Both the position numbers and the translations under genes were made by a program. Under the pieces are notes generated by a model. That model had not been told where the DNA came from and made no database searches. It saw only the letters and a list, made by a program, of their open reading frames with translations. A DNA stretch of 63,957 nt, filler included, from a bacterium (GTDB taxonomy: Bacteria > JALSQH01): NCBI GenBank assembly GCA_026985515.1. It is 6 parts of 6 records of this genome, joined end to end, with 100 filler letters (N's around TTAATTAATTAA, not from the genome) between each part and the next. Parts side by side here need not be neighbours in the genome. Positions count along the whole stretch, not along the records: positions 1 to 26,880 come from JALSQH010000223.1; positions 26,981 to 34,455 come from JALSQH010000226.1; positions 34,556 to 41,990 come from JALSQH010000227.1; positions 42,091 to 49,442 come from JALSQH010000229.1; 2 more parts are not named here. One strand, written 5' to 3'. Positions 6 to 43,901 of the stretch are shown in pieces; position 1 is the stretch's first letter; every line of letters begins with the position of its first letter.

Positions 6-935
6 ATGTATCATTCGCCCCAGTATCTTGGAGGTAATTACTTTGTCCTCGCAGCGATGAAGGAGAGTCTTGGTTATGATAGGGAAGCGGAAAAGTATTA
101 CAAAAAAGCCTTTTCTCTATACCCATTACTGAAAGAGAGACCAAGACCAATCGATGTTGATGCTATGATAGAATTGGCAATCTTCCTTAAAGATAGCAAT
201 AAGCTTGATATTGCTGAGAAAAAGGTAAAAGAGGTATTGAAGATTGATCCCCGGAATCCTCTGGCTTATTCAATTCTTGGGGATATTTATTATCTGAAGG
301 GAGAAATGGGCAATATCAGAAAGAGGCAGGATTACTATGGTAAAGCCATAAAAAGCTACCTCAAATCTCTTGATCTTGATCCACAGCAACCAGATGTGTA
401 TGTGAAACTTGGTAACATATATTTTTCTCAGGGTAATCTTGAAGTAGTGTATTACAGGCAGGGAAAATATCACCAGGCGTTTCTGAACTTCAAAAAAGCT
501 CTCGAACTTGATCCTGCCAATCCTTCCGCTCATCTCTCTCTCGGGATGCTTTATCTGGCACAGGGAGACTATGCTGAAGCTGACACAACTGTGAGTAAAA
601 CCGATTATTACAGACGAGCAATAACTGAATTGACCATTGCCGCAAGTAATGGACTGGGTAACTTTTATGTTTACTATCTCCTTGCTCTCGCATACAGAAA
701 GATAGGAGGAGAAAAGAATCTCAGAGTGGCTGAATACTTCGTCAGAAAAAGTATTAAAATGAATCCAGAATGGAATTCACCTCGATATCTTCTAGCATCA
801 ATACTGGAGGAGACTAACAGAAAAGAGGAGGCAGACAGGACCCTCGCATCAATAAAACCCGGCGGTGAAATTGGAGAAAAGGATATTTTAAGTTACATTT
901 TAATTCTCACACAGAGGGGAGGTGGGAAAGGATGA
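6..935 (+). CDS. Tetratricopeptide repeat protein (probably begins upstream of the window)
   Basis: Multiple TPR motifs (e.g. AYSILGDIYY...KAIKSYLKSLDLDP, AHLSLGMLY); the stop overlaps the next ATG (ATGA). Confidence 0.85.
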   Translation: MYHSPQYLGGNYFVLAAMKESLGYDREAEKYYKKAFSLYPLLKERPRPIDVDAMIELAIFLKDSNKLDIAEKKVKEVLKIDPRNPLAYSILGDIYYLKGEMGNIRKRQDYYGKAIKSYLKSLDLDPQQPDVYVKLGNIYFSQGNLEVVYYRQGKYHQAFLNFKKALELDPANPSAHLSLGMLYLAQGDYAEADTTVSKTDYYRRAITELTIAASNGLGNFYVYYLLALAYRKIGGEKNLRVAEYFVRKSIKMNPEWNSPRYLLASILEETNRKEEADRTLASIKPGGEIGEKDILSYILILTQRGGGKG

Positions 936-2194
936 AGAAAAGACTTGGGACAATACTGCTTGAAGAGGGACTTATTGATAAGGCTCAGCTTGAGGATGCT
1001 TTGAGAATTCAGAGAGAAAGAGGCGGCAGGCTTGGAAGTATTTTAATTCAACTGGGTTATATCGATGCTGATACCCTTGCCAGGATATTGAAGGAACAGC
1101 TGAATATAGAAACCGTTTCCCCAGAAGAGATAGAGCATCTCGATTACAGTGTGATCAATTCTATACCCAGGGACCTTGTGGAGGAATATCAGGTTTTACC
1201 GGTTAGGGTAAAGGATGGTGAAATTGAAGTGGCCATGCTTGATCCCAGAAATACTCGGGTTCTGTCGGAGTTGGGCTTTTTCCTTGATAAGGAGGTAGTC
1301 CCGCTTATAATACCGGAAGGTTTGTTGTACAGGGCTCTCAAAAAGTACTACAATCTTGATGTTGAACCGGAAGAGGAAATTATTGAGGAAGTGGTCGCTT
1401 CCGGAGTATCTTCTCATCAGGAAGTCGCGGCGCCGCCTGAATATGAAGAAGTGGTGGAAGAAGTTATTTCTCCTCCTTCAGAAGCTAAAAGATCCGAAGT
1501 CTCAGAAGCTGGGCCTGCTACTGCAGAATCTGAACCGGAAGTTGTGGAGGAGGTTAAATTTGAAGAAGTTTCCCGGCCAGAAGAAATTAAAGTGTCAGAT
1601 GGAGTGACTGAGGAGGAGGTAGTGCCTCCTCCGGTAGAAGAGATTTCTCCTCCAGCGGAAAGTGTGTATGAGGAGTGGACGGAAACTCCTGTAAAGGTAG
1701 AAGAGGTAACTGAAGATACTCTTCGATCCGCCAGAAGTATGGATGACCTTGTTTATTATCTTTCCAGGCTTCTTGAAAAAAAGAGTGCCAGACATGTTAT
1801 TTTTAAGGTTCAAAAAGGGGTGGCTTTTGGATGGGTTGCAAAGGGAGAGGATATTTCCCCGGGCTACATAGATTTAATGATGATTCCTCTGTGTGCTCCA
1901 TCTATGTTTAAAACCTCAGATGAAACAGGAGAGACCTTTTTTGGTCCACCACCAATGGACAATCCAGTTGTGGAGAGATTTATGAAGATTCTGAATTCTC
2001 ATCTTGAGCCTCCCAGAAATTTTATTCTTACTCCAGTTAAAGTTCAGGGTAAAACGGTTTTGTTCATCTATCTTGATAACGGTAAAGGGAAAGGGATTGA
2101 TGATCTTAAGCTTCTGCCAGAGATCAACAGAATCGCCTCCACACTCTCTGAAGCAATAGAGAGAATTATTGCCAGGAAGAAAAGGGGAAGTTAG
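932..2194 (+). CDS. MshEN (GspE/PilB N-terminal) c-di-GMP-binding domain protein without ATPase; acidic linker and GAF-like C-terminal domain (FrgA-like)
   Basis: Tandem RLGxxLxxxG(L/Y)IxxxxLxxxLxxQ motifs at residues 4-56; no Walker A/B; E/P/V-rich linker. Confidence 0.85.
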   Translation: MKKRLGTILLEEGLIDKAQLEDALRIQRERGGRLGSILIQLGYIDADTLARILKEQLNIETVSPEEIEHLDYSVINSIPRDLVEEYQVLPVRVKDGEIEVAMLDPRNTRVLSELGFFLDKEVVPLIIPEGLLYRALKKYYNLDVEPEEEIIEEVVASGVSSHQEVAAPPEYEEVVEEVISPPSEAKRSEVSEAGPATAESEPEVVEEVKFEEVSRPEEIKVSDGVTEEEVVPPPVEEISPPAESVYEEWTETPVKVEEVTEDTLRSARSMDDLVYYLSRLLEKKSARHVIFKVQKGVAFGWVAKGEDISPGYIDLMMIPLCAPSMFKTSDETGETFFGPPPMDNPVVERFMKILNSHLEPPRNFILTPVKVQGKTVLFIYLDNGKGKGIDDLKLLPEINRIASTLSEAIERIIARKKRGS

Positions 2195-4323
2195 CCTCCT
2201 CCCATAAAAATGAATGGAAAGATAACAGTAACGGATCCACCCATTGGTCTTGGAAATGTCCAGTTTTTAACCTTGAAAAGAATACAGCTTTCCACTTCCA
2301 TGTTGTTAAGGGTGGATTCTTCAATGCTGGCAGCTGATACATGTCCATCTGAACCAATGGTGAATTTCACTTCGATTTTACCTTCAAGATTGGGATTTAT
2401 CTTGAGCTGTTTTTCGTAGCAGTATCTCACTTCACCGTAATGTGAGGCAATAACTGTTGATATTACCTTCGGGTCAAGCCTTCCACTTTTCTGCTCGCTG
2501 GAGAGTTTGATCTGGGCCTCAATCTTTTTTATGTTCTTTTTCAAACTCACCTTTTTAACTTCCCCCACGTTAATATCAATATCCACATTTCTCACTTTTC
2601 CTCTTCTTCTTACCCCTGCAATAATAATTTCCTGCTTTTTAACCTGGCTGTTCTGTTCGGAGAGGAGCTTATCAATGTCACCCAGATTGATTCCTCCACC
2701 AATTGAAGTTCCAAAGAAGCTTTTTTTCCTGGTTTTTCTTATGTTTGAAGAAATCGTTTTTCTTTTTTCTGATCTGGAACTACTCTCTTTTTCAGGGGTA
2801 CCCGGTGCAGATTTTTTTATCACTTCATTTTTGCTTGCTGGTATTCTTTCCGGGGTTTTCCCCTCAACGGGAAGAGACTGTGAAATTATAGCTACTTTTT
2901 TCGTCTTTTCAGGTGTCGAAAGTTCACCAGTGGAGACGGTTTTCTTCTGATTTACCATCACTTTCCTGTTGCTTGCCAGCTCTTTTTTTGAACCTTCTCC
3001 GGGTGGTAAAGATTTATTTCCAGTTTTTTCAGCACTGGCCTCCTCTTTGCTCAGATTTTTTTCAGTGGAAACTTTTTCTTTTCCGGGAAGGTTAACAGTT
3101 TCCGGTTTTTTTTCTTCAACACTAATGGAAGCCTCAACTTCCCCCTTTTCCATCTTCTCAGTGGTAATTTCTGGCTCAGGTGGAGGAGTCTGTGGAGTTA
3201 TGCTTTCAATTTTTGGAGAGGAAATTTTCATTGCCACCTGGGATTTGAGTTTTGCATAGAGATTTTTGCATATTGAGCTTGTTTCCCTTTCCATTTCAAA
3301 ACCATATATATCCTGAGAACCTCCTCTGCAGCACATTGAAAGTTTTTTATAAGCTTCATCATTATTACCCATATACCAGTAAAGCTCCCCAATTTTGCAT
3401 CTAACGTGCTTATATGCAGGATCAATTGCTTCCACATTTGAGTACATATACAGGGCGAGTTTAAGCGTACTGGATGAATTGGTACTCTTTCCTATGCTTT
3501 CATAGAGATATCCGAGATCAAAGAATGCTTCTTTCTGAACAGATACCTCTCCAGATTTACTTGCCTTCAGTGCAGCCAGCCTGAAGTAATTTGTAGCGTC
3601 GCTGATTCTTCCAAGCCACCAGTAAAGCCTTGCGAGATTGAGGTAGTAAACTGCTTCATCGGGAGATAGATTTATTGCTTTGAGATAGTAATTTTCTGCC
3701 ATCGACGCCTGATTATCAGAACTATCATAGTTACCTCTTGACCATGCGATTTTTGATAATTTTTCAGAAATAAGAGCCAGTCTTTCATATATTTCTGCCT
3801 TGAAAGTTCTTATTTCTATTTCGCTTTTCCCTTTTTGCTTGCAGGTGAGAGCCTTTTTGTAGAAGGCAATGGCTGCAGGATATCTCTCCATTATTTCAAA
3901 GATTGAGCCTATTATTTTGAATATTTCAGGAATGCATAATTTTTCCTCTTCCGCCTGCGTGTATGCCTTTTCAAGTTCTGTTCGGGCAGAATCGTAATCA
4001 CCTGTTCTATAATAAATCAATCCAAGATAGTAGTGTGGAAGGTAGGATTTTGACCCGAGATTAATGGCATTTTCAAGTTCATCTTTAGCTTCGTCCCACC
4101 TGTTCTGATAGTAGTAAACAATACCGAGATAAGTGTGTATCTCTGGATTGTCAGGATAGCTTATTTCATTTCGCAGTAATATTTGTTCTGCTCTTTTGAG
4201 GTCTTCTATGCCTCCACTTTTGATGAGATTTTGTGCCCTGAATAGAGAACTTTTGAGCTGAAAGGAGGCACACCCCGCTACCCATAGTGCTATAAAAAAC
4301 AGTACAAAGTTTCTTTTCATCAT
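2191..4323 (-). CDS. TPR lipoprotein with low-complexity linker and C-terminal AgmX/PglI (GltG/GltJ-type TonB-C-like) domain
   Basis: Lipobox VAG|C; TPR array; C-terminal motif VRYCYEKQLKINPNLEGKIEVKFTIG...VESCIL...WTFPRP...VIFPFIF. Confidence 0.8.
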   Translation of the reverse strand: MMKRNFVLFFIALWVAGCASFQLKSSLFRAQNLIKSGGIEDLKRAEQILLRNEISYPDNPEIHTYLGIVYYYQNRWDEAKDELENAINLGSKSYLPHYYLGLIYYRTGDYDSARTELEKAYTQAEEEKLCIPEIFKIIGSIFEIMERYPAAIAFYKKALTCKQKGKSEIEIRTFKAEIYERLALISEKLSKIAWSRGNYDSSDNQASMAENYYLKAINLSPDEAVYYLNLARLYWWLGRISDATNYFRLAALKASKSGEVSVQKEAFFDLGYLYESIGKSTNSSSTLKLALYMYSNVEAIDPAYKHVRCKIGELYWYMGNNDEAYKKLSMCCRGGSQDIYGFEMERETSSICKNLYAKLKSQVAMKISSPKIESITPQTPPPEPEITTEKMEKGEVEASISVEEKKPETVNLPGKEKVSTEKNLSKEEASAEKTGNKSLPPGEGSKKELASNRKVMVNQKKTVSTGELSTPEKTKKVAIISQSLPVEGKTPERIPASKNEVIKKSAPGTPEKESSSRSEKRKTISSNIRKTRKKSFFGTSIGGGINLGDIDKLLSEQNSQVKKQEIIIAGVRRRGKVRNVDIDINVGEVKKVSLKKNIKKIEAQIKLSSEQKSGRLDPKVISTVIASHYGEVRYCYEKQLKINPNLEGKIEVKFTIGSDGHVSAASIEESTLNNMEVESCILFKVKNWTFPRPMGGSVTVIFPFIFMGGG

Positions 4324-4435
4324 AAATCTTCCCTTTACCGGTAGTTTTTTATATGATAACTCTTAGCCTCAAAAAAATCAATCCTGCTTTTCACCGGAAT
4401 CGGACAGGAGTAGTTATGAAGAAACTTTCATTGTA

Positions 4436-4444
4436 TGTTAAAAT
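4436..4444 (+). promoter_or_regulatory. Putative extended -10 promoter element for tldD
   Basis: TGtTAAAAT 22 nt upstream of the ATG at 4467. Confidence 0.4.
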
Positions 4445-4466
4445 ATTTTCCAGAACGGAGTCGACA

Positions 4467-5813
4467 ATGATAGAAAATTTCAATCCTTCTCTTTTATCAG
4501 GTAAAAAATGGAAGGAGATCTTCGCTGAAAGGAAAAGAGAATTGATCATAGTTATGGAACAGGGAGAGATAGAAAAGTTATGGGAGGTTGAAGACGCAGG
4601 GGCGGGGCTGAGGATAAGAGATGGAGAGCGTTTTCATTACAGATATGTTACATCTCTTGATGGCAGGAAGATTTCGGAGATGATAAGAGATGTTGAATCG
4701 GGAGAATGGAAAAGAATTGAAAGAGAATCCAGTTACAGATGCGAGGTCAGGAAGCCCTTTAATTCGGTGGAAATTGCAAGAAAAATTGACATTCTGAAAT
4801 CGGCTGATTCCTTTATTTCCCGCTATGGCTCCATTGTATCTTTCAGGAAAGTGGTTTACAAAGAAAGTCTCAGAGAAATAGAGGTAATAAATTCTGAAGG
4901 CGTACACGTTTATGATATTCAGCCGCAGGTGGTATTCTATGTGCAGGTTGCTGTCAGTGACCCTGAAAGAGGAATGGAAACCGGCTATGAACCTGTAGGA
5001 AGATCGGGTGGATTTGAAGTAATAGAAGAGATTTCCCCTGAAAATATTGCAAAAATAGCAGTTGAAAGGGCCCTGAAAAATCTCAAGTCTGACTGGGCTC
5101 CTGCAGGCAGAATGCCCGTTGTAATATCCTCTGAAGCGGGAGGGACAATCATTCATGAAGCGGTGGGGCATGGCCTTGAGGGGGATCTTGTATTCAACAA
5201 TCTTTCTGTATATGCGGGGAAACTGGGAGAGCAGGTTGCTTCTGAGAAAGTAACCATCATTGATGATGCCACACTACCCTGCTACAGAGGTTCCTTTGCC
5301 TATGATGATGAAGGAATCCCTTCCTCAAGGAGTGTACTGATAGAAAAGGGGGTTCTGAAAGGATATATGAGTGACCTTTTTTACGCAGAAAAACTGGGAG
5401 TTGAGCCAACGGGAAATGGACGCAGAGAATCCTACCGGTTTATGCCGGTGGTGAGGATGAGCAACACATTCATGTTGCCTGGTAAAGACAGTGTCGATGA
5501 CATTGTAAGTTCTGTGGATTATGGTCTCTTTGTTAAAAAAATGGGAGGGGGTGAAGTGAACACGGTGAGCGGAGATTTTGTGTTTGAGGTTCTTGAGGCA
5601 CATCTCATAAAAAATGGAAGAATCGCAGAACCTGTCAGAGGAGCAACCCTGATAGGGAATGGTCCCGAGATTCTCAAAAAGGTGGATATGGTGGGGAATG
5701 ACCTGGGTTTTGCCATTGGCACCTGCGGAAAGGAGGGTCAGGGAGTACCTGTAACTGATGGTATGCCCACCATTAGAGTTCCCGAGCTAACGGTGGGAGG
5801 AAGAGTTAAATAA
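4467..5813 (+). CDS. tldD: TldD/PmbA family metalloprotease (TldD)
   Basis: HEAVGH zinc motif, DDEG, GNGRRESY..RMSNT, CGKEGQGVPV. Start moved to ATG 4467 (GGAG SD at 4457-4460). Confidence 0.9.
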   Translation: MIENFNPSLLSGKKWKEIFAERKRELIIVMEQGEIEKLWEVEDAGAGLRIRDGERFHYRYVTSLDGRKISEMIRDVESGEWKRIERESSYRCEVRKPFNSVEIARKIDILKSADSFISRYGSIVSFRKVVYKESLREIEVINSEGVHVYDIQPQVVFYVQVAVSDPERGMETGYEPVGRSGGFEVIEEISPENIAKIAVERALKNLKSDWAPAGRMPVVISSEAGGTIIHEAVGHGLEGDLVFNNLSVYAGKLGEQVASEKVTIIDDATLPCYRGSFAYDDEGIPSSRSVLIEKGVLKGYMSDLFYAEKLGVEPTGNGRRESYRFMPVVRMSNTFMLPGKDSVDDIVSSVDYGLFVKKMGGGEVNTVSGDFVFEVLEAHLIKNGRIAEPVRGATLIGNGPEILKKVDMVGNDLGFAIGTCGKEGQGVPVTDGMPTIRVPELTVGGRVK

Positions 5814-5826
5814 AAAGGAGGTTAAA

Positions 5827-6345
5827 ATGGGAAGGGAAGCTCTTCTTGTTATTGATATGCTTAATGATTTTGTGAGGGAAGGAGCGCCTCTGGAGGTTCC
5901 TTCAACCAGAAAAGTAATTCCGGTGATTCAGGAGGAGATAAGGAAATTCAGAGAGAAGGGGGATCCTGTAATTTATATCTGCGATGCTCATGATCCAGAT
6001 GATCCTGAGTTTAAAATCTGGCCGCCACATGCTGTAAAGGGTACAGAAGGGGCTAAAATCATTGATGAACTTGCACCGCAGGAAGGAGACATAATTGTTG
6101 AGAAAACAACCTACAACGGATTTTATAAAACTAACCTTGAAGAGATCCTCAGAAAGTTAGGCGTTGATACCGTGAGACTTACTGGCTGTGTAACTCACAT
6201 ATGTGTTCTCTACACAGCTGCTGGAGCCAGAGTAAGGGGGTTTAATGTGAAGGTTGTTGAGAAAGGTGTAGCCCCACTCTCTCTGGAGGATCATGAGTGT
6301 GCATTGAGGCAGATGAGAGAAGTTTTGAAGGCAGAGATAATTTAG
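5827..6345 (+). CDS. pncA: Nicotinamidase / isochorismatase-family cysteine hydrolase
   Basis: LLVIDMLNDF, DAH, WPPHA, GCVTHICV; adjacent to pncB. Confidence 0.8.
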   Translation: MGREALLVIDMLNDFVREGAPLEVPSTRKVIPVIQEEIRKFREKGDPVIYICDAHDPDDPEFKIWPPHAVKGTEGAKIIDELAPQEGDIIVEKTTYNGFYKTNLEEILRKLGVDTVRLTGCVTHICVLYTAAGARVRGFNVKVVEKGVAPLSLEDHECALRQMREVLKAEII

Positions 6346-6358
6346 AAGGAGAGAGAAG

Positions 6359-7519
6359 ATGTTTTACCTTGCTGATGAAAAGCAGATAAAGGCCAGTAGA
6401 ACCACAGATGTTTATTTTCTCCGGACTGTCCAGATACTTCAGGCAAAAGGCATCAACAAAAGAGTAAAGATGGAGGTTTTCCTTAAAAATCTGCCTGATT
6501 CATATAAATGGGGTATTTTTGCAGGGCTGGAGGATTTACTTAGATTGTTTGAGGGTGATCCTGTTGATATTTACGCTATTCCAGAAGGTAGTGTTTTTTA
6601 TGAGGGTGAGCCTGTTCTCACCATTGAGGGGATTTACAAAGACTTTGCTCCAAGAGAAACTGCAATGCTTGGTTTTATCTGCCAGGCTTCAGGAATTGCC
6701 ACAAAGGCGGCAAGAATAAAAAAGCTGGCAGGAAGTAAAAGTGTGGTTCATTTTGGTGCGAGGAGGATGCATCCTGCCATTACCCCCATGATAGAAAGAT
6801 CAGCTTATATTGGTGGCATGGATGGTGTGGCAACTGTTGCTGGAGCGGAGGCTATTGGAAAGAATCCTGTGGGTACCATGCCACATGCTCTTATGCTTGT
6901 AGTTGGAGATACTGTGAAAGCGGCAAAGATGTTTGATGAAGTGATCTCTGAAGAGGTTCCCAGAATTGTTTTGATTGATACTTTTATGGATGAAAAATTT
7001 GAAACCATCCGGGTTGCGGAGGAATTGGGAGAGAAGTTAAGCGGAGTGCGGCTGGATACCCCTTCAAGCAGGAGAGGAAATTTCAGAAAAATTATTGAGG
7101 AAGTGAGATGGGAACTTGATATAAGAGGTTACAGACATGTGAAAATATTTGTAAGTGGAGGAATAGACGAAGATTCGGTAAGAGATCTGGCAGATGTGGT
7201 TGATTCTTTTGGCGTGGGAACTTCAGTGAGCAATGCGAAGACTTTTGATTTTTCTGCAGATATTGTGGAAGTGGAGGGTAAGCCTCTTGCCAAGAGGGGG
7301 AAATGTTCGGGTGCAAAAAAGTTGTGGGTTTGTGATAATTGCGGGAACAGAAAAGTTACTCTTATGAAAGAGGAAAAGAGCATGTGTGAAAGGTGCGGTT
7401 CCCCGATGCGACCACTGACAGTTAAGTATATGGAGAATGGAAAAATAATAAGAGATCTTCCTTCTGCTGAAGAGATAAGGGAGTATGTATTGAACCAGGT
7501 GAAAGATTTATCAGTGTAG
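6359..7519 (+). CDS. pncB: Nicotinate phosphoribosyltransferase with C-terminal Zn ribbon
   Basis: TDVYF, FGARR, GTMPH, VRLDTP, SGG, FGVGT; CDNC...CERC. Confidence 0.92.
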   Translation: MFYLADEKQIKASRTTDVYFLRTVQILQAKGINKRVKMEVFLKNLPDSYKWGIFAGLEDLLRLFEGDPVDIYAIPEGSVFYEGEPVLTIEGIYKDFAPRETAMLGFICQASGIATKAARIKKLAGSKSVVHFGARRMHPAITPMIERSAYIGGMDGVATVAGAEAIGKNPVGTMPHALMLVVGDTVKAAKMFDEVISEEVPRIVLIDTFMDEKFETIRVAEELGEKLSGVRLDTPSSRRGNFRKIIEEVRWELDIRGYRHVKIFVSGGIDEDSVRDLADVVDSFGVGTSVSNAKTFDFSADIVEVEGKPLAKRGKCSGAKKLWVCDNCGNRKVTLMKEEKSMCERCGSPMRPLTVKYMENGKIIRDLPSAEEIREYVLNQVKDLSV

Positions 7520-7521
7520 CG

Positions 7522-8055: not shown

Positions 8056-8069
8056 TTCATTACCTCTGT

Positions 8070-8098
8070 TTGACTTCTCCTACATTCTATCTTAAAAT
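8070..8098 (+). promoter_or_regulatory. Sigma70-type promoter for the 8133-smc-ftsY unit
   Basis: TTGACT-N17-TAAAAT. Confidence 0.65.
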
Positions 8099-8132
8099 AA
8101 AACTCAGGTGAAGTAAAAGGGGGTTTTTTGTA

Positions 8133-10982
8133 ATGAGGAAAGTGGGTGTGGTATTTGTGTTAATTTTCATAACCTTTCTTGTCTCCTGCAGTGGTGCTGG
8201 TGGAACGAATACAGGAGTGGGAGTTTCTCATGCTCTTATTATTGAGAACAGTGATCAGTTGATAGGTGGTCCCGTTGCTGAAGGAGAGGAGGGGGATATC
8301 CTCATCTACAATAATCTGTCGAGATTTATCATTAAGGTAAGCGATTATCCCTATCCGGTGCCTCTCAGAGGGATGGTTGTTGATGGGGATATTAGAAGAT
8401 TTCCTGGAGAAAGAGGTGAGGATATCATACCAGGTGTGATTTTTTATTATCTCCCCGGTCATTTTGTGAGACCCGCACAGATTGTTGAGTCTTTACCAGA
8501 AATATCTATCCAGGATGATGGTAATTTTTCAGGAGTGGCTGCAGTAAAAGTAACAGGTAAAGATAGATTTTATCCTGATAGTGTAACAGTTTATCCTGAA
8601 AGTATTTCATCCGCAATAAAAAGAGATTTACCTCTTGAGTTCACAGTGGATTACTTTCTTCCACCTGATTCTCCCTGCCTGAGAGTGCTTGTTACTGTTA
8701 AGAATAAAGCTGAAAATGACATCACAATTTATCCTGGAATTCTCCTTCCCCCAGGTCCCGGAAAATCCTTTGCTGGAAATTATGGTTTTACAGGGTACAG
8801 GGTTCCACAGATTATTGATGGGATTTCATACATTGCAAAGGAATTTCAGGGAATAACATTTGGAGTTTATTCTGGTGGAATGGAGAAGGAGCCCTTATCT
8901 CCTGCTTTTGCTCTCACTGAGAACTCCGGGTATTCTTTACTCACAAAGAAGTCTCCATCTGATGTGGTCCCCGCCGGAGAAAGGAGGGCATACTCCTTTG
9001 CTGTCTGCGTTGTTAAAGGATACACTGGGGAACTTTACTCTTTTCTGACAAAAATGGAAGGTGTTGATAGAACCACTGTTTCAGGTTATACATGTTACAC
9101 TTCCGGGAATGATAAAGTTGTGCAGAGTGGGGGAACTTCCAGAAAAGTTTGTGTTACAGAAGAGGAAAGTGAGGAAAATGGGAAAACTTCAAATTCACCC
9201 ATTGATGGTGTGGATATATTTCTTTTAAATAACAGTGGTGAGGTTCTTGCCCACACCCGGAGCGGCAACGATTCGGAAGTTTACTATCAGGCACTTGAAA
9301 CACTTGACAAAACCAGATTATACAGGAAAAGTGAGTGGAAAGGTAAGTATAAATTCACTCTCCCGGGAAATAGGTACAGAATCTGGGCTGTGAGAAATGG
9401 TTTTGAACTTGCAGATACAAATTACCTCAACATTTTTCCTCCTCCCGGTACCCCCGCTGATGAAGGAATTATTGTTGAGCATGCAGATTTTGTTTTTCCG
9501 TGGCCCGTGACACTTGATGTTTTTGCGAAACTTGTCCCTGCTTCACCCACTTCTGCCAGGTTGATTCTGAAGGGAGAGAATCTTTATCCTGTGACAATAA
9601 CAAAGTATCTTGATAGATTCGGATACTCTTACCGGATAAGTGGTGAAAATCTCCGGGTTTTTTACATTGGTCCCGATGGGTATTTGCCAGTTGAGCTTTC
9701 CCCGGGTAAATATACCTATTTTGCTGATAAGGGTATCTTCTATAACACAGTTACAGGGAGCGTGAATATCATTTCAGGTAGTAAGACCCTTCTTTTAAAG
9801 TTCAAGAGAGTTGTCGATTCTCTTAATTATGTTGCAACAGATCCTTTCATAGAGAACCTGTCATGGGGAAACGAATTTGATGAGGAAAGCAGGACAGAAT
9901 CAGTAATTTCTTCCTCCATAGATGGAGGTGTCATTTTTGATTACAACATTTCTCCTGTGACATTTTCCACTGAGCTCCCTGTCCTGTATGGTGATTTCCT
10001 GTACACGCCTTATGGAAATTTCTTTGCATTTCCTCTCTTTGAAGGAGAATTATCTCCAGATTTTATGAGCAATCCAGAGTCCCTCTTTAAACACAGGTCT
10101 TACACTGTTCTTTATGATCTCTCAGATTCATCCTCATACTTTGTAAGGGAAGGTGTGCATATAGACTTCAATACCGGTAAGATTAAGCCCGATGATTTCA
10201 AGAACGATTTTGACATGATGCAGATTTTACCTGTTAAGGATTTGAAAAAGGTTATTCTTGAATGGTTCAGATTACTTCAGGTTTCTCCAGATGGTAAGGA
10301 TGAAAATTTCATTTTTCATCCACTTATTGGAGGTTCCATGAGTTCCTCACCTCTCTTTTCACCTCCTGGACTGGTTGAAACATATATTTACAGTGGTCCT
10401 ACAACTTCTGCAACCCTCGTTAACCAGGAGGAATGCAGGAAATTTAAGGAACTTGACGAAGATATTAATGATTCCCTCTGCATGATGTGGAAGGGGAACT
10501 CGGTGGTAGGAAGGTTTGTTTTCTTCTCATTTTATGTGACGACCTCGGCAGGCAAAAGGGGATTTCCAGGAGAATACGTTGCCGCTTCCTCCGGTGACAG
10601 GATTTATCTCAACTTAACAATTGAAAGTCCAGCGTGGGCTAAATTTGATAAGATTTACATCTTTGATGGGTTACAGGATTATGGATACAGTGTAACTGAT
10701 CCTTTCAGTAAAGCTGTAACTGTGGCTGTTTCTCCTCAAATAGTTCAGGTAGGGTATGAGAATTCAATGAAAAGATATGAATGGAGCGGGGTTATTGAAT
10801 ATCCATTTGCCCTTAACAGTAATGCCGATTCCTGGGTAGTGATCGCTGTAGTGGGAGATAATCCGGCATCCTATTATCCATCTTTAAAACCCTTTGCAAT
10901 ATCCAACCCCGTTTTTATTGATACAGATCTTCAGAGGGGTTACAATCCACCCTGTCCTGGAATGGCCTGTCCCAGCCGGTAG
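8133..10982 (+). CDS. Large lipoprotein, CehA/McbA-like (PHP-domain) architecture with degenerate metal ligands
   Basis: Lipobox LVS|C; N-terminal LIGGPVAEGEEGDILIYN; C-terminal FAISNPVFID; PHP motifs lack His. Confidence 0.6.
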   Translation: MRKVGVVFVLIFITFLVSCSGAGGTNTGVGVSHALIIENSDQLIGGPVAEGEEGDILIYNNLSRFIIKVSDYPYPVPLRGMVVDGDIRRFPGERGEDIIPGVIFYYLPGHFVRPAQIVESLPEISIQDDGNFSGVAAVKVTGKDRFYPDSVTVYPESISSAIKRDLPLEFTVDYFLPPDSPCLRVLVTVKNKAENDITIYPGILLPPGPGKSFAGNYGFTGYRVPQIIDGISYIAKEFQGITFGVYSGGMEKEPLSPAFALTENSGYSLLTKKSPSDVVPAGERRAYSFAVCVVKGYTGELYSFLTKMEGVDRTTVSGYTCYTSGNDKVVQSGGTSRKVCVTEEESEENGKTSNSPIDGVDIFLLNNSGEVLAHTRSGNDSEVYYQALETLDKTRLYRKSEWKGKYKFTLPGNRYRIWAVRNGFELADTNYLNIFPPPGTPADEGIIVEHADFVFPWPVTLDVFAKLVPASPTSARLILKGENLYPVTITKYLDRFGYSYRISGENLRVFYIGPDGYLPVELSPGKYTYFADKGIFYNTVTGSVNIISGSKTLLLKFKRVVDSLNYVATDPFIENLSWGNEFDEESRTESVISSSIDGGVIFDYNISPVTFSTELPVLYGDFLYTPYGNFFAFPLFEGELSPDFMSNPESLFKHRSYTVLYDLSDSSSYFVREGVHIDFNTGKIKPDDFKNDFDMMQILPVKDLKKVILEWFRLLQVSPDGKDENFIFHPLIGGSMSSSPLFSPPGLVETYIYSGPTTSATLVNQEECRKFKELDEDINDSLCMMWKGNSVVGRFVFFSFYVTTSAGKRGFPGEYVAASSGDRIYLNLTIESPAWAKFDKIYIFDGLQDYGYSVTDPFSKAVTVAVSPQIVQVGYENSMKRYEWSGVIEYPFALNSNADSWVVIAVVGDNPASYYPSLKPFAISNPVFIDTDLQRGYNPPCPGMACPSR

Positions 10983-10984
10983 AG

Positions 10985-34661: not shown

Positions 34662-34693
34662 TCTTTTAAGAAAAATCAAAAAGGAGTGGTGAG

Positions 34694-37097: not shown

Positions 37098-38037
37098 TTT
37101 TCTTCTTTTCTTCTTCTATTCTTCTTCGTGTGCAGGTCAAAAAAGCAAATCAGCAAACAAGAAAAACTTACCACCTCTCATAATTGACACCGATATAACC
37201 ATGGGATTACCATTCAAGGATGTTGATGATGGACTTGCCGTTGCTTCCATCATTCTGAGTGGTAAATATGATGTTAAAGGCATTACTGTAACTTTTGGAA
37301 ATGGAACTCTTCAGGAGGCAAGAGAAAGAATCCTCGATCTTCTTTCACATCTCAATGTGAATATTCCTGTTTACAATGGAGCTGAAGATAAGTACTCTCT
37401 TGGCGTAACCACTGAAGCTGCCAGATTTATAACTGCTGTGGCGGAAAAGTACAGAGGAAGAATAACGATACTTTCCATAGGACCTTTAACTGACCTTGCT
37501 ACCGCTTATCTTCTCAATAAAAAGATATCTGGTTATTTTAAAGAAGTTGTAATAATGGGCGGAGCTATTTTTCATGAGGGCAATGTTCCACCAGAGATGG
37601 AGAGTGAGTTTAACTTCTGGAGAGATCCTCCTGCTGCAAAGATTGTCCTTGATAATTTCAAAAACATCCGCCTTTTCCCCCTTGATGTGTGTATGGACAC
37701 CATAATTGATGGTGAGGAAATGAAAAACCTCTCGCAATGTACTTCCTCATGGTGTCAGTACCTTTACAACAACATAAAAGATTGGTATGATATTATGAGT
37801 TCAATTTTTGGTGGTTTTTATCCTTATGATCTGATTGCTGCACTTTACCTGGTTGATAATAGTTTTTTGACAGATTACAGAACGATGCCTGTCACTGTTC
37901 TGACGGAAGAAGGTGAATATTACGGGAAAAGCATTACAACAGGTGCAATTAATAAAAGCCTTGTTTTCTTTGACCTCAATGAAGAAAGGTTTAAAGATGA
38001 GTTTTACAGGTATCTGAAAATTGGAAAAGGAGATTAA
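37057..38037 (+). CDS. Nucleoside hydrolase (IU-NH family) with lipoprotein signal
   Basis: IIDTD...DVDDGLA, TFGN, GPLTDLA, MGG, EFNFWRDP; signal peptide ending SSS|C. Confidence 0.85.
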   Translation: MKLNLKQILLISGSFLLFFFYSSSCAGQKSKSANKKNLPPLIIDTDITMGLPFKDVDDGLAVASIILSGKYDVKGITVTFGNGTLQEARERILDLLSHLNVNIPVYNGAEDKYSLGVTTEAARFITAVAEKYRGRITILSIGPLTDLATAYLLNKKISGYFKEVVIMGGAIFHEGNVPPEMESEFNFWRDPPAAKIVLDNFKNIRLFPLDVCMDTIIDGEEMKNLSQCTSSWCQYLYNNIKDWYDIMSSIFGGFYPYDLIAALYLVDNSFLTDYRTMPVTVLTEEGEYYGKSITTGAINKSLVFFDLNEERFKDEFYRYLKIGKGD

Positions 38038-38038
38038 T

Positions 38039-38851
38039 ATGAAAGTCGTTGTAACAGGTGCCGCTGGAAGGATGGGTAGTTTGATCTCCCGTCTTGTATG
38101 GGAAAGCGAAGATATGGAACTGGCAGGTGTAATTGAAAGGGAGGATCACCCTCTTCTCGGGCGTGATATGGGATACATATGGGGAACGGAGAAGGCTGGA
38201 ATTGTTCTTGAATCAGATTTTCTTAACAGGATTGAGAATGCTGATCTTTATATAGATTTTACATCTCCCGAGTCCTCACTTAAATTTCTCACCCTTGCTG
38301 CAATGAAAGGAAAGGCAGCAGTGATTGGTACAACTGGATTCACAGAGCAGGATAGGGAATTTATCAGGGAGCAGGCTCAAAAGATCCCTGTGGTTCTTGC
38401 TCCCAATATGAGTCTTGGCATAAATCTTCTTTTTTACCTTACAAAAAAAGTTTCAGAGGTGCTGTTTAATAGAGATTTTGATATTGAGATAATTGAAAGG
38501 CATCATCGCCACAAACTCGATGCTCCGAGTGGAACTGCTCTTAAAATTGGAGAGATAATTTCTGAAGTAATAGGAAAACCACTTGAGGAAATAATGAAGT
38601 GGGGAAGATATGGGCGTTCAACAACTGAGAGGAGCAAAGATGAAGTGGGGATATTTGCCCTCAGGGGAGGTGAGGTTGTGGGAGAACACACCCTTTTCTT
38701 CTCTGGTCCAGCTGAGGAAGTTGTAATCACCCATCGGGCTTTTTCAAGAAAAGCCTTTGCCATAGGTGCCCTCCAGGCTGCCAGGTGGGTAGCAGGGAGA
38801 GATAAGGGATTATATGATATGCAGGATGTCCTGGGACTGAGAGGTGAGTGA
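38039..38851 (+). CDS. dapB: 4-hydroxy-tetrahydrodipicolinate reductase
   Basis: [33 protein letters not shown]. Confidence 0.96.
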
Positions 38852-38852
38852 G

Positions 38853-39614
38853 ATGAAGTTTGGAAGATTTCTCTTTGGTGAAAAGGTGTTCTGGGGTAGA
38901 GTGGAAGGTGATGAAATTGCAGTGTTAAAAATCCCTCCACAGAAAGGGTTGATTGAAAGTGGGGAGGTATTTAACATAAACGAGGTTAAAATTCTGCCTC
39001 CTGTGGTTCCCACAAAGATTGTGGGGGTGGGGCTCAATTACAGGAAACATGCAGAGGAGATGGGCAAGCCACTTCCAGCGGAACCACTCATTTTTCTCAA
39101 ACCTTCAACGGCTGTGATCGGCCCTGAAGATAACATAATCTTACCTCCTGTGAGTGAGAGGGTTGATTATGAGGGGGAACTTGGAGTTGTGATAAAAAAG
39201 GCGTGTAAAAATGTGGCGGTGGAAGAAGCTTCAGAGTGTATAATGGGATTTACCTGTTTCAACGATGTTACTGCCAGAGACCTGCAGGCAAAGGATGTGC
39301 AGTACACGAGGGCGAAGGGTTTTGACACTTTTGCCCCTGTTGGTCCTTTTATTGAAACAGATATAAACCCTGATGAGGTGGAAATAAAAACATACCTGAA
39401 TGGAGAGATCAGGCAACATTCCTCCACTGCAGATATGATATTTAATGTGTATCAGCTGGTCAGTTTTATATCAGGAGTAATGACTCTTCTGCCGGGGGAT
39501 GTGATTGCTACTGGAACACCTCCCGGTGTTGGTAAGCTTTCCCCGGGAGACAGGGTTTCAATTGAGATAGACGGTATTGGTACCCTTTCAAACTATGTTG
39601 TAGCTGTAAAATAG
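38853..39614 (+). CDS. Fumarylacetoacetate hydrolase family protein
   Basis: [37 protein letters not shown]. Confidence 0.93.
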
Positions 39615-39624
39615 GAGGTGGATT

Positions 39625-40794
39625 ATGGATTTTCCTTTTGCGAAGAGGATAAGGGAACTGCCCCCCTATCTTTTTGCCGAGATCGACAGGTTAAAAGAGG
39701 AACAGATAAAGAAAGGGAAAAAAGTTATTGATCTGGGTGTGGGGGATCCCGATATACCTACTCCTCCCAGTATTGTGAGTGCACTCCAGAGGGCTGCAGA
39801 GAAGAAAGAAAATCACAGATATCCTTCATATGTGGGGATGCTGAAGTTCAGAGAGGCAGCGGCGGAGTGGTACAGAAAAAGGTTTGGAGTCACCCTTGAT
39901 CCAGAAAGGGAAGTAATAACTCTGATTGGTTCCAAGGAGGGGATAGCTCATCTTCCATGGGCGTTTATTGATGAGGGTGACATTGCACTCGTACCAGATC
40001 CTGCCTATCCTGTTTATGGAATTGCAACAAAGTTTGCAGGGGGAGAAGTTTATAAGATGCCCCTTAAGTGGGAAAATGGTTTCTTACCAGATGTGGAGTC
40101 AATTCCGGAAGATGTTCTGAAGCGAGCAAAACTCATGTTTCTGAATTATCCCAATAATCCCACCACTGCCGAGGCAACAGAAGAATTTTACAGAAAAGTT
40201 GTTGATGTGGCAAGCAGATACTCTATTCTTGTAGTTTCAGATGCCCCATACACTGAAATCTACTATGACGAGTCAAAGAAACCATTGAGTATACTTCAGA
40301 TTGATGGTGCAAAGGATGTGGCAATTGAGTTTCATTCTCTCTCAAAAACCTACAATATGACAGGATGGAGAATCGGTTTTGCCGTTGGAAATGAAAGTGC
40401 AGTTAAAGGGCTGGGGAAGATCAAGACCAATGTTGATTCCGGTGTCTTTCAGGCAATTCAGGAAGCGGGAATTGAGGCCCTTACAGGTGACCAGAGTTAT
40501 GTTGAGAAAAACAGAGAAATTTACAGGAAAAGGAGGGAGATTTTTATTAAGGGATTGGAAAAACTTGGACTGGATTATATGAAAAGTAACTCAACCTTTT
40601 ATCTCTGGATAAAAGTTCCTGACGGTTATTCTTCCTCAGACTTTGCAAAAAAGCTCCTTGAAGATGCTGCAATTGTGGTTACTCCAGGAGTTGGTTTTGG
40701 GGAGTATGGTGAAGGTTATTTCAGGGTTTCTCTGACTCAGGATACAGATTTACTTGAAGAAGCAGTGGAGAGAATGCTAAAATTAAATCTGTAA
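39625..40794 (+). CDS. dapL: LL-diaminopimelate aminotransferase
   Basis: PPYLFA, GSKEG, NYPNNPT, SLSKTYNMTGWRIG; dapB context. Confidence 0.85.
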   Translation: MDFPFAKRIRELPPYLFAEIDRLKEEQIKKGKKVIDLGVGDPDIPTPPSIVSALQRAAEKKENHRYPSYVGMLKFREAAAEWYRKRFGVTLDPEREVITLIGSKEGIAHLPWAFIDEGDIALVPDPAYPVYGIATKFAGGEVYKMPLKWENGFLPDVESIPEDVLKRAKLMFLNYPNNPTTAEATEEFYRKVVDVASRYSILVVSDAPYTEIYYDESKKPLSILQIDGAKDVAIEFHSLSKTYNMTGWRIGFAVGNESAVKGLGKIKTNVDSGVFQAIQEAGIEALTGDQSYVEKNREIYRKRREIFIKGLEKLGLDYMKSNSTFYLWIKVPDGYSSSDFAKKLLEDAAIVVTPGVGFGEYGEGYFRVSLTQDTDLLEEAVERMLKLNL

Positions 40795-40803
40795 GGTAAC
40801 CAG

Positions 40804-41316
40804 ATGGCAATTTATCTTTCACTTGGATCAAATTTGGGCGACCGGCTGAAACATATTCTTGACGCTCTTGGCGAGCTAAACATATTCGGAAGAGTTGTGG
40901 CTGTGTCAGACCTGTATGAAACTGCTCCCATCGGGATGGGGGGAGAAAATTTTTACAACTGCGTTGTGAAATACAGAACCAATCTCTCTCCGTTTGAATT
41001 TCTCAGGATTTTGAAAATGATAGAGCATGATCTGGGAAGGGATGAGTCTCAGGGGCATAACAGACCACGGGTAATTGATATTGATATTCTGATTTATCAC
41101 AATTACAGGATAGAGAGTGAGCAACTTACCATTCCTCATCCGGCCATCTATGTGAGGGATTTTGTTCTCAGAGGACTTTTGGATATCGATGAAAACTTCT
41201 TCTGCAGATTTGTGGGTAAGTCGGCCTCTGAAATACTTGGTGCTTTAAAGGAAAGATCCATCCTTAAAAGAATAATGAGGGGAGAGGAACTTTTTGAATT
41301 ACTTTTTACAGGGTGA
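40804..41316 (+). CDS. folK: 2-amino-4-hydroxy-6-hydroxymethyldihydropteridine pyrophosphokinase
   Basis: LSLGSNLGDR, PRVIDIDIL, LTIPHP. Confidence 0.93.
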   Translation: MAIYLSLGSNLGDRLKHILDALGELNIFGRVVAVSDLYETAPIGMGGENFYNCVVKYRTNLSPFEFLRILKMIEHDLGRDESQGHNRPRVIDIDILIYHNYRIESEQLTIPHPAIYVRDFVLRGLLDIDENFFCRFVGKSASEILGALKERSILKRIMRGEELFELLFTG

Positions 41317-41990
41317 GATATAGATTTCCCCCCATTTTCCTCCTGACCATTTATGTTTTGAACCTTCCACATAGAAACTCCATTGAGGTAGTTCTTTTTC
41401 AAGTTTTTCTATTAATTCAGGTTTTACAATAAGAGCAGTGGCAAGCCCATCAGAAATAACTGGATCTGTTCCCACAACTACTGAAACTCGTCGAGTGTCT
41501 ATTCTTTTACCTGAGAATGGATTATAAATTTCTTTTCTCAGGTAGGTTCCCGAAGAAAAGATACTCCATTTTCCTTTTAATTTAATGCATCCTTTTTCCA
41601 TTTTCCCCCTGAAATTCCGAAAACTGACTGTAATTCTTTTCCCCCATGCAATTATATCTCCCCCGGCATTTATATATCCCTCTGATGAATGGGAGAAAAA
41701 CTTGTTGAAAAGTTTCATAATTACATATCCCTTTGCCATTCCGCTGAAGTCAAAGATAAGATTCTTCCTGTGCTTGATCAGTAGATTTTTGTTCAGGGTC
41801 AGGAGATCAGATATTTTTTTATCCCGGGTCTCTTCAGGACTTCTGAAGAGGATGTCAAAGTAGCCATCGGTGAGATTAAACAATTTGATTCCATAATCAA
41901 CCATTTTTTCAAGATCTTGGTTAAGTGCAACGGTTGAAACGGGTTTATTGAGAAGAGTATTTAGCAGGCTTTTTCTATTCTGGAAGGATA
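41299..41990 (-). CDS. ApbE-like FAD:protein FMN transferase, divergent, N-terminus truncated
   Basis: T.GYFDI, DFSGMAKGY, INAGGDI, SSG.Y.R, SDGLATAL. Confidence 0.75.
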
Positions 41991-42090
41991 NNNNNNNNNN
42001 NNNNNNNNNNNNNNNNNNNNNNNNNNNNNNNNNNTTAATTAATTAANNNNNNNNNNNNNNNNNNNNNNNNNNNNNNNNNNNNNNNNNNNN
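41991..42090. other. Artificial contig spacer
   Basis: N44-TTAATTAATTAA-N44. Confidence 0.99.
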
Positions 42091-43077
42091 CTCCTCAATA
42101 TAGCAGTAACCATAAAGCAGTTGAGCCTTGGGTATCAAAGGACTGTCAGGTACTTCCTCAGCGAGCTGGTAAAGTAAATGATAAGTTTTCCCAAATTGTC
42201 TCTTCATGGCCCATACCCATGCCCTCTCATACAGAGCATGGTCATAGAAGCGGGATGTGGAAGTAATTTTCAGATAATAGCTTCTTGCCCTATCGTAATC
42301 ACCTGCCTCAAAGAATAATCTTCCGATTGAGAGAAGAAGCAGGTCTTTGAAATCCGTGTAAAACTTTCTCTTACCGGTTTCCTCCAGTGGGGTTTTAGCC
42401 AGATCAGATTTCACCTCTTTAAGGAGATGGTAAAAAATTCTGTAACTCTTTACAGGCTGATTCTCAAGGAGGTAAATTGAAGCAAGATAATACCGGGACT
42501 GCAGGTAAAACTCACCACCCTTTTTAATATTTCTGAAAAGTTTTGCAGCCTCCCTGTACTTTCTCATGTTAAAATAAGAAACGCCCAGCAGATACAACGC
42601 TCTGTTTTCAAAAGCTTCAGGGGGAAGAATTTCTTTCAATATCTTGAAGTAACCTATTGCCTCTCCAAAGCGTTTCAACATTATGGATATTTCAAGCAAA
42701 CGCTGAATCACATCAGGGTAAAAGGGGAATTCCCTACCATATATGGCAAGAATCTTCCTGTAAGTCTGGTAAGCCTGCTGAAGCATTCCCGACTGAAAAT
42801 AGGATTCGCCAAGATAGTACATGGCTTCCCTGTATTCGGGAAGATAACTCAGTTCCCTGTATTTAACTGCAGAGTAAAAAAATGCCATTGCCTCTTCGTA
42901 GGAACCAGAGGAGTAAAAATCGAGACCAAGATCAAGGTACTTCTTTACATGTTGAATCTTTTCTTTTCTGGATAATTCCTCAATAAGTGATCTCTTCTTA
43001 GGATAGAGAGCCGGGGCAGTTAAAAAAAAATCCCCACCAATCAAAATCAAAAGAAACAGAACACTCTTAAGCTTCAT
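42091..43077 (-). CDS. Exported TPR protein, GltC/GltD-like (C-terminus truncated)
   Basis: Hydrophobic N-terminus; TPRs; LSIGRLFFE.GDY..A..YY..I...SRFY..ALYERAW motif. Confidence 0.7.
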
Positions 43078-43901
43078 TCTACAATCTTAAATTTTATGGT
43101 TGGTCTGTCCTTCAGCTGATATATTGAACCTCTATCTGCTGGCATTATATTTATAGTGATTGTTTTACCCCTGGGGGCACTGAAATAGTAGGTTGCTGAA
43201 ACTTCCATTTTTACAGCTTCCATGTAGGTAAAAATTCCATATCCCTTTCCTCTGATTATCATATCCACATCCAATCTGTGATTTTCCGGCAATATACTGG
43301 CGGTAAAGATTTCCATATTTCTGGCCTTTTCAAGTTTTGAAGCATCCTTCTCCTGATAAATTGGATATCCATCAAGTTTTACAACCACCTGTACCGGGGC
43401 AAAGGTACCACCCATGTCATTTGTAAAAAGGAGCCTCAATTTTGTTCCACTTATAAACCCCTGAGAAATTCTGTCCCCCAGCTCCATTATCTTTGACTTT
43501 GTATCCAGAATCTGGTTTCTCAGTTGATTGATTTTCTCCTCAAGTCTCTGTAACTCCTCATCCGTGACAACAAGATTTCCACTTTCCTCTTCCTGAAACT
43601 CCTCTTCAAGAGAGGTGGAAGGGGGAATGTTTTTCATCTCTTTTTCCATTTTCTGTTCCCCGGGACCTGCAGGTTTCTCCTCTTCTACAGGTCCTCCCTC
43701 TTCAAATATCTCCTCTTCAGTGCCTCCGCTCCTGGTGGTAACACTTCCCGAAACTGGAGCCGGTGCCGAACTCTTTTCCACAGAAGTGGTTGCTGGCTGT
43801 GTCCCCTCCTCCATTATAATTTCTTCGCCGGAGAAAACCCCTGTCCCCCAGAGAAAGAAACCCATTATCAGAATTACTGAAAACAGTTTTCTATTCATCA
43901 C
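43074..43901 (-). CDS. Exported protein: acidic linker, coiled coil and beta-rich domain (myxobacteria-type family)
   Basis: Signal peptide; LEEKINQLRNQILDTKSKI; NDMG..F......LDG.PIY; RGKGYGIFTYME; LKDRP. Confidence 0.7.
   Translation of the reverse strand: MMNRKLFSVILIMGFFLWGTGVFSGEEIIMEEGTQPATTSVEKSSAPAPVSGSVTTRSGGTEEEIFEEGGPVEEEKPAGPGEQKMEKEMKNIPPSTSLEEEFQEEESGNLVVTDEELQRLEEKINQLRNQILDTKSKIMELGDRISQGFISGTKLRLLFTNDMGGTFAPVQVVVKLDGYPIYQEKDASKLEKARNMEIFTASILPENHRLDVDMIIRGKGYGIFTYMEAVKMEVSATYYFSAPRGKTITINIMPADRGSIYQLKDRPTIKFKIVE

Follow-up and report, generated by a model that had tools for sequence, protein, structure and literature searches.

Which machine do the two genes at positions 42091–43901 belong to, and what would that machine move? 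The DNA analysed here (the window; 63,957 nucleotides) consists of six contigs of one genome bin with N spacers between them. A first-pass annotation had read a tetratricopeptide repeat (TPR) plus coiled-coil operon at this place as one of the rearranged, dispersed parts of an Agl-Glt-type envelope machine, the type that drives gliding in Myxococcus. We strongly infer that an Agl-Glt core operon begins with 42091–43901 and that an assembly gap interrupts it; what had looked rearranged and dispersed is instead a conserved operon broken by assembly. Judged from gene order, its layout is of the type of Myxococcus xanthus cluster G4 and not that of the gliding clusters. In what follows, G000 is this genome, C-numbers are its contigs and G001 is the sister genome, which is 80% complete; literature statements come from the available parts of the papers cited by PMC number.

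The first gene encodes an exported protein whose disordered N-terminus precedes a coiled-coil helix and a transthyretin-like β-sandwich; we call it cc-Ig. In its structure model (predicted local distance difference test score, pLDDT, 79.6) the helix spans residues 114–146 and is followed by strands at 153–274. The predicted coiled coil was thus recovered, and the TPR gene behind it is cut by the contig end. The protein had no Pfam match and no NCBIfam match below E 0.04, and a Foldseek search with the model returned weak fold matches, none at E≤0.001. Sequence relatives at E≤0.001 numbered 726, and a metagenome scan returned the window's own contig only. To place the family we used AglR-like loci from named genomes, the best 80 of the 610 that an AglR-alignment genome scan had collected. 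The cc-Ig profile matched in 34 of these 80 loci, always directly before a GltC-like TPR gene, and this position upholds the assignment of 42091–43901 to an Agl-Glt-type machine. On the GltC model the TPR gene scored 38 bits against a cut-off of 450, the sole match to that model in the genome; GltC was assigned by synteny and profile, the model match being weak.

The missing part of this gene was sought by tiling along a profile of 21 foreign GltC-like proteins. Residues 43–323 of the 329 on C229 cover profile positions 64–332, and a 5′-open reading frame at the start of C18 covers the profile from position 348. A second set of genes behaves alike, C42 covering positions 61–520 and C27 continuing from 663. 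C229+C18 and C42+C27 were the only pairings that tile, with about nine residues missing in C229+C18: the halves of C42+C18 would overlap on the profile, and C229+C27 would lack about 325 profile positions. Among the contigs of three runs none bridged the gap between C229 and C18, the longest record reaching 22 bases past the C229 end, and the two contig ends overlap by merely 3 bases. Given the tiling, the join is very probably correct.

On C18 the 5′-open frame is followed by gltD, gltE, gltF, aglR, gltG, x177, a barrel gene, wza and wzc. The GltD-like TPR protein has 1193 amino acids and was assigned by size, position and a profile built for this analysis, the curated GltD model giving no match. 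The GltE-like lipoprotein scored 124 bits on the GltE model and GltG 183 bits on the GltG model, and the gltF gene is CglF/GltF-like. The barrel, a WzpB-like porin, matches PF10082 and had no sequence relative in the PDB. Wza carries two SLBB domains, and its best PDB match was M. xanthus WzaB (9N9A). The secreted product of x177 (177 amino acids) combines a signal peptide, a helical core containing two conserved cysteines, a β-prone stretch and a C-terminal PPxxSPF motif; in the Atlas it falls into Myxococcota-rich clusters without names. The features of a G4-type cluster, namely a cc-Ig head, a long GltC and the run x177-barrel-wza, are therefore all present, their combination depending on the C229–C18 join.

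Two details of C18 stand apart from this argument. A further copy of the cc-Ig β-sandwich forms the end of the GltC-like protein (C18:1423-1725); the cc-Ig profile detected such a domain in no other GltC-like open reading frame (ORF) of 84 loci. The porin gene has an apparent ATA start behind a GGAGG site (C18:10452-10496), its signal peptide lying upstream of the first GTG.

The remaining components are found elsewhere in the genome. The cut-off of the AgmX/PglI model was exceeded by three genes, that at 2191–4323 of the window and two that lie beside MotA/ExbB genes on C18 and C97. C97 carries gltF, aglR, two ExbD genes and gltG, an arrangement kept in G001, and a second cc-Ig head with its C-D-E set lies on C42 and C27, which share a 19-base in-frame overlap. 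The GltC-D-E order is thus present in two sets, and the genome holds three partial sets (C229+C18, C42+C27 and C97). In a FastTree phylogeny both AglR proteins fall among AglR-type sequences and are separate from the TolQ/ExbB of the genome. The proton-channel aspartate resides in the second ExbD subunit (78 of 78 homologues); the first has asparagine instead, as do 61 of 81 homologues. Each of the two GltG genes encodes one transmembrane helix and an AgmX/PglI TonB-C-like domain (hydrophobic helices at 143–161 and 181–199), with scores of 183 and 140 bits on the GltG model, whose cut-off of 650 was not reached. Indeed all matches to the GltC, GltE, GltG and GltJ equivalog models lay below their cut-offs, and these genes are therefore paralogs rather than gliding orthologs. 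The genome encodes an Agl-Glt core with a complete aglR-ExbD-ExbD-gltG motor locus. In this respect a search for AglQ/R/S and Glt homologues confirmed that an Agl-Glt-type machine with a MotAB-like motor is encoded, with GltC, D, E, F and G homologues at hand.

Clusters G4, G5 and M2 of M. xanthus have been described as paralogs without known function (PMC3169522). G4 comprises MXAN_1923 to MXAN_1919, with products of 809, 1111, 490, 91 and 447 amino acids (PMC3169522), which we assigned to C, D, E, F and G by size and tree file since the homologue column of the source table is apparently scrambled. The order is the same here, with products of about 950, 1193, 604, 96 and 447 amino acids. A porin and an outer-membrane polysaccharide export (OPX) gene lie downstream in both: in M. 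xanthus these are wzpB (MXAN_1916) and wzaB (MXAN_1915) (PMC9603273, PMC7310880), and WzaB is the best PDB match of the C18 Wza. The pair is part of the biosurfactant polysaccharide (BPS) pathway, whose product is built from ManNAcA (PMC9603273); mxan_1915 has been called orphan-like (PMC7310880) and wzaB an orphan (PMC7484181), the rest of the BPS cluster lying 1 Mb away (PMC7310880). Further upstream are mglA (MXAN_1925) and mglB (MXAN_1926) (PMC3169522). In contrast to M. xanthus G4, the operon described here includes aglR, has wzc directly after wza, encodes a GltC-like protein with an extra cc-Ig-type domain and a Wza with two SLBB domains, and has mglBA on a separate contig.

How general the run into export genes is was examined in the 80 AglR loci, of which 45 had gltG on the operon strand and 3 kb or more of downstream sequence; the remaining 35 were too short, inverted or without gltG. 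Among the 20 loci headed by cc-Ig, the barrel was present in 18, x177 in 16 and wza in 14. Of the 25 loci without a cc-Ig head, four have the head cut off and carry barrel, x177 and wza, and the other 21 carry none of them. In an independent sampling through x177, this gene occurs within one phylum in 66 of 81 genomes, mostly in single copy. A scripted rule found the barrel downstream of x177 in 22 of its 30 best loci; gltG lies upstream within 1.5 kb in six and within 12 kb in nine more (15/30). In those nine a protein of about 1300 amino acids is mostly inserted between the two. One genome group (seven loci) has here an apparently repetitive insert of about 1300–1600 amino acids, a candidate surface protein or cargo. 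Four genomes with the M. xanthus-like layout have a cc-Ig head gene and the order mglB-mglA-ccIg-C-D-E-F-G-x177-barrel-wza, which fits the MXAN tags; M. xanthus DK1622 is known here from its published tags, not from its DNA.

We found no report of the G4-wzpB-wzaB linkage in print, though subscription papers, supplements and one 2015 paper on capsule and motility may hold it. The tags MXAN_1917, 1918, 1919, 1921, 1923 and 1924 occurred in no main text among the literature searched. The core complex itself is already known: all seven components of the complex of Luciano 2011 (GltC, D, E, G, AglR, Q and S) have homologues in G000. Unlike that complex, the one here is spread over three loci, has C/D/E and F/R/G duplicated and includes GltF, neither GltG matched the Pfam FHA domain, and the host belongs to a candidate phylum of two genomes.

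An operon that runs into export genes suggests the handling of secreted sugars and not movement. Our best explanation is a proton-driven envelope machine tied to polysaccharide export, a reading that we hold in even balance. In the published AlphaFold model of the Myxococcus machine, an AglR pentamer and an AglQ/AglS heterodimer bind the GltG helix, the GltG arm wraps GltD, and GltF contributes a strand to the TonB-C domain of GltG and reaches across to GltC, which lies beneath the GltABH barrels (PMC11761067). By analogy, proton flow through an AglR pentamer and its ExbD-like heterodimer would move the membrane-anchored GltG arm, and this arm would grip the GltC/D/E/F TPR scaffold under the outer membrane. 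Apparently lacking GltA, GltB, GltH and an adhesin, the scaffold would work at the polysaccharide porin of its own operon, which is the simplest inference because GltABH were not found. There it might help to open the porin, draw the polymer outward or distribute it on the cell surface; the cell itself would not be propelled. A polysaccharide cargo is plausible because the paralogous Nfs machine moves a Wza-exported polymer. The M. xanthus gliding (G1, G2, M1) and Agl-Nfs machines share the motor type and the periplasmic TPR scaffold (PMC3858216, PMC11761067), and Agl-Nfs likewise handles a Wza-exported polysaccharide (PMC3858216). The row of barrel, short OPX protein and Wzc on C18 also recurs in the class-3 OPX/β-barrel translocons WzpB-WzaB-WzcB and EpsX-EpsY-EpsV (PMC9601211, PMC9603273, PMC12819527). 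In the available parts of these three papers neither an Agl-type motor nor a Glt scaffold is given a role; TonB has no mention in any of them and Glt none in PMC12819527. As a speculation, x177 could be a plug or handle of the porin; a complex prediction of barrel, GltG C-terminal domain and x177 from 20-row alignments gave a score of 0.00, which is evidence neither way.

Do the genes of the first contig, which had been annotated as parts of the same machine, belong to it? The gene at 2191–4323 does carry the AgmX/PglI-type TonB-C domain assigned to it (Table 1); its TPRs and lipoprotein cysteine had not been connected with this domain in the first-pass annotation. Its product has a signal peptide with Cys18 as its sole hydrophobic stretch, TPRs at about residues 20–367 and a disordered linker leading to a copy of the GltG periplasmic arm, and lacks a transmembrane helix; the TPRs take the place of the cytoplasmic FHA or zinc-ribbon/GYF domains of GltG and GltJ. 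In a fold model the TPRs form a superhelix that a disordered linker joins to the AgmX domain. Residues 435–709 share about 33% identity with the GltG arms of this genome, and the best matches of the arm were the two GltG proteins of the genome and that of the sister (122, 120 and 108 bits, against at most 91 for others). Because the arm matches its own GltGs better than foreign ones, the protein is, by sequence comparison, a lineage-specific duplicate of the GltG periplasmic arm that appears to have lost the membrane helix. Two full-length relatives were present among 33 matches (390–1243 residues; 8000 scored candidates), in addition to a G001 ortholog in the same gene order. The Atlas returned generic TPR and TPR+TonB_C clusters only, with TPR+TonB_C fusions of other families in Acidobacteriota. 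A lipid-anchored arm could not be driven in the way of GltG and would most likely act as a fixed anchor or as a competitor on the scaffold.

Table 1. Features of the operon head, of its continuation on C18 and of the flanking and first-contig genes (window positions unless a contig is given).
Feature	Position	Strand	Basis or remark
cc-Ig protein, first gene of predicted G4-type core operon	43074..43901	-	profile, structure model
GltC-like TPR gene, 5′ part, 329 codons	42091..43077	-	cut by end of contig C229
5′-open ORF, 609 codons, probable rest of gltC	G000:C18:1-1830		profile tiling
Nucleotide-sugar dehydrogenase, UDP-HexNAc type	44042..45343	+	TIGR03026, 454 bits vs 189.8; divergent from operon head
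TPR-AgmX lipoprotein, 710 amino acids	2191..4323	-	NF033768 at amino acids 616-706, 114.7 bits vs 40
MshEN protein	932..2194	+	MshEN domain, 53.9 bits vs 23.1
Generic TPR protein, 3′ half, ~560 amino acids whole	3..935	+	5′ half on contig C102

The neighbouring gene at 932–2194 encodes, as annotated, an MshEN protein with no ATPase family among its Pfam matches; it has two tandem cyclic di-GMP (c-di-GMP) motifs, an acidic linker and a C-terminal domain. The MshEN motif was found in no ORF of 84 AglR-type loci, and we rejected the protein as a Glt part; it is probably a stand-alone c-di-GMP effector. The frame at 6–935 does encode TPRs but is the 3′ half of a gene, whose two halves match residues 4–245 and 251–560 of a 562-residue G001 ortholog at about 60% identity. 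As a GltE candidate it was discarded, its score on the GltE model being 25 bits, compared with 124 for the GltE-like gene of C18. Neither this TPR gene nor the MshEN gene is linked to a Glt operon, and a single machine from genes of the first and fourth contigs was not confirmed. The locus, in the order DUF4388-DnaJ-TPR, lipoprotein, TPR, MshEN, convergent TPR-AgmX and tldD, is kept in the sister genus apart from any agl or glt gene. This conserved separation, and the transcription of the TPR-AgmX gene towards the MshEN gene and not with it, would suit a separate c-di-GMP-linked surface module for pilus or adhesion control that borrowed a GltG domain without ever contacting the core machine, a possibility that we place just under even. 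Yet what was borrowed is the complete periplasmic arm, with the segment that the published model shows wrapped around GltD (PMC11761067), and among four orthologs, in which Cys18 is invariant, the C-terminal 100 residues are the best conserved. This alternative concerns the first-contig genes only and is compatible with an export-linked machine at the C229–C18 operon.

For that operon itself a different account has to be weighed, a general Tol/Ton-like envelope device for outer-membrane upkeep or protein and lipid transport, in which the export genes would merely be old neighbours, like mglBA in Myxococcus-like genomes. We consider this a possible explanation of minority standing. It would fit the 21 of 21 informative non-G4 loci in which the core stands without barrel or wza, the more frequent pairing of x177 with the barrel than of either with gltG, the unchanged motility of the M. 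xanthus G4 mutant (PMC3169522), and the three partial sets of this genome, only one of which adjoins wza. Against it, the barrel follows gltG in this candidate phylum, in Myxococcota/Bradymonadia and in one Bdellovibrionales genome, and in M. xanthus wzpB-wzaB has remained beside G4, with the other BPS cluster genes located elsewhere (PMC7310880).

Several further points weigh against a tie to export. Linkage is not function, and the linkage counts are not independent events: on an AglR tree (FastTree, 87 sequences, 208 columns; weak deep nodes) the linked loci fall mostly into one clade, joined by one Bdellovibrionales locus and this genome, which amounts to few independent events, and the C18 AglR lies outside the main linked clade of this weakly resolved tree. 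The barrel profile was made from linked loci and could miss other barrels beside unlinked operons, and the 30 best x177 loci were drawn with a model also built from linked loci, which favours linkage. Of these 30, seven have no core gene within 12 kb upstream and eight more are of insufficient length for a decision. The barrel is missing from two of the 20 cc-Ig loci, and in one genome (G025) the fetched flank of a complete core operon has no barrel and no x177 was found in the genome. The C229+C18 operon has no ExbD genes of its own, and cc-Ig, GltD and x177 were not found in the incomplete G001, which keeps the motor locus. In M. xanthus a polar insertion in MXAN_1922, within G4, left motility unchanged (PMC3169522), whereas BPS-pathway mutants including wzaB spread poorly as swarms and look fuzzy (PMC7310880). 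The MXAN_1922 result thus argues against a strict need of G4 for BPS export, in a test that predates the description of BPS.

A more far-reaching version of the export reading joins these observations into one history. The ancestral role of the Agl-Glt core would have been to energise polysaccharide export, the Agl proton motor acting through GltG and the TPR scaffold on a porin of the WzpB type, for which x177 would serve as a free-standing plug or handle; G4-type operons would be the surviving form, and Nfs and gliding would have arisen when the porin was exchanged for GltA/B/H. Taken as a whole this history is rather unlikely. Within it, wzpB-wzaB, the 'orphan' pair of M. xanthus, would be the last part of the G4 operon, the protein at 2191–4323 a GltG arm anchored from the outer-membrane side, and the operon described here a G4-type operon kept intact in a deep hot-vent lineage. 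The function of the Agl-Glt core and of G4 has been open since 2011, and wzaB has been termed an orphan in two papers. A conserved G4-wzpB-wzaB linkage provides a concrete hypothesis for core function that is testable in M. xanthus and that, if true, bears on the energy source of class-3 OPX/porin systems and on the evolution of gliding. If the linkage is inherited gene order only, what is gained is a new host for a known complex and one unusual fusion protein. In either case the genome extends the Agl-Glt system to a candidate phylum, apparently thermophilic, with only two genomes.

Gliding itself is unlikely because GltA/B-type barrels, GltJ and GltH/GltK were not found. TIGR04565, which we take to represent the GltA/GltB-type outer-membrane barrels, had no match in G000 or G001 and was positive in four of four control genomes. 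The GltJ model reached at best 49 bits against 450, catching only the shared C-terminal domain or short fragments. The models for CglC (GltK) and CglE (presumably GltH), run without a positive control, had no match in either genome. CglD was rejected, with repeat-level matches only (best 36 bits against 400). The longest ORF seen in this fragmented assembly has 2000 amino acids, compared with 4132 for GltI, and a type IVa pilus set (pilB, pilT, pilC and a pilin) offers twitching instead. The seven-gene core, or group B, occurs in non-gliders and is insufficient for motility (PMC3169522). A simplified gliding machine, with the TPR-AgmX lipoprotein or some other adhesin standing in for the absent outer-membrane module, is therefore quite improbable, even with a full motor, two to three copies of the GltC/D/E/F/G homologues, mglBA, many large lipoproteins, no flagellin found in G000 and a GltF that counts as a group A gene in Luciano 2011 (PMC3169522). 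The Glt-like motility that had been proposed is replaced by a machine of the G4, or core, type.

Some observations touch on these parts. C48:50-1147 is a Myxococcus-type mglB-mglA pair, and three more Roadblock proteins are encoded elsewhere in the genome. An ORF of at least 2000 amino acids at C1:1-6003 has Asp-rich repeats and weak CglD-model matches; a similar frame of 1833 amino acids exists in G001, and the product is likely a large adhesin. C105:2192-2584 encodes a lipoprotein-like protein of 130 amino acids that consists mostly of a divergent AgmX/PglI domain (32.5 bits) and is also present in G001; a 12-base overlap inside proS possibly places C105 next to the far end of C229 (window 49442). 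A second wza-wzc pair with a phosphatase-like gene lies at C58:12996-16935, without a G4-type barrel.

A predatory or scavenging lifestyle, which the annotation had also suggested, was not borne out: the window holds biosynthetic genes for arginine (argJ), lysine (dapB), purines (purD) and aromatic precursors (part of aroB). A type II secretion system is present in the genome as well, and so is a Tad locus, whose CpaF ATPase (C69:2121-3683, on a 4.4-kb contig, C69:3-4360) is fused to an N-terminal FHA domain. KilF of Myxococcus is such an FHA-fused Tad ATPase (PMC8460266). The fusion, which was not found in G001, keeps the idea of predation alive.

All ORFs of the first-pass annotation are present at their positions and with the domains claimed, that at 6–935 being a gene half, and its description of a compact genome with thermophilic traits agrees with our data. 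The bin comprises 2.36 Mb in 268 contigs (97.6% complete, 0.83% contamination). The amino-acid bias points to a thermophile: the fraction of I, V, Y, W, R, E and L residues (IVYWREL) is 0.437 in a crude ORF set, which by formula corresponds to about 74 °C. The best-matching sequencing run, a possible source of the bin, is labelled hydrothermal vent metagenome. C220:3065-6445 encodes a protein of 1126 amino acids whose zinc-finger start resembles that of reverse gyrase; if it is one, it would fit thermophily. Membership of the first and fourth contigs in the bin was supported by tetranucleotide profiles that are ordinary for it (r=0.982 and 0.979; ranks 99 and 85 from the bottom among 162 contigs of at least 5 kb).

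Divergent from the operon head, the dehydrogenase at 44042–45343 had its next matches in UDP-ManNAc dehydrogenase and TviB models, both below cut-off, and its best PDB matches in UDP-ManNAcA dehydrogenase and Cap5O; it may supply uronic-acid sugars for the exported polymer. Contig C226 (26981–34455) carries a polysaccharide cluster of 36% G+C with glycosyltransferases, a sulfotransferase, a flippase and rmlD, and its tetranucleotide profile is the fourth most deviant among the 162 contigs; it possibly holds the synthesis genes for an exported polymer, or foreign DNA. On the plus strand at 8133–10982, directly upstream of smc-ftsY, lies a gene for a predicted lipoprotein of 949 amino acids with no Pfam or NCBIfam match. 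At 47836–48648, on the minus strand, an exported TPR-like protein gave a weak match to the model of the sterol transporter BstC (E 0.005), and two acyl-CoA dehydrogenase genes follow downstream.

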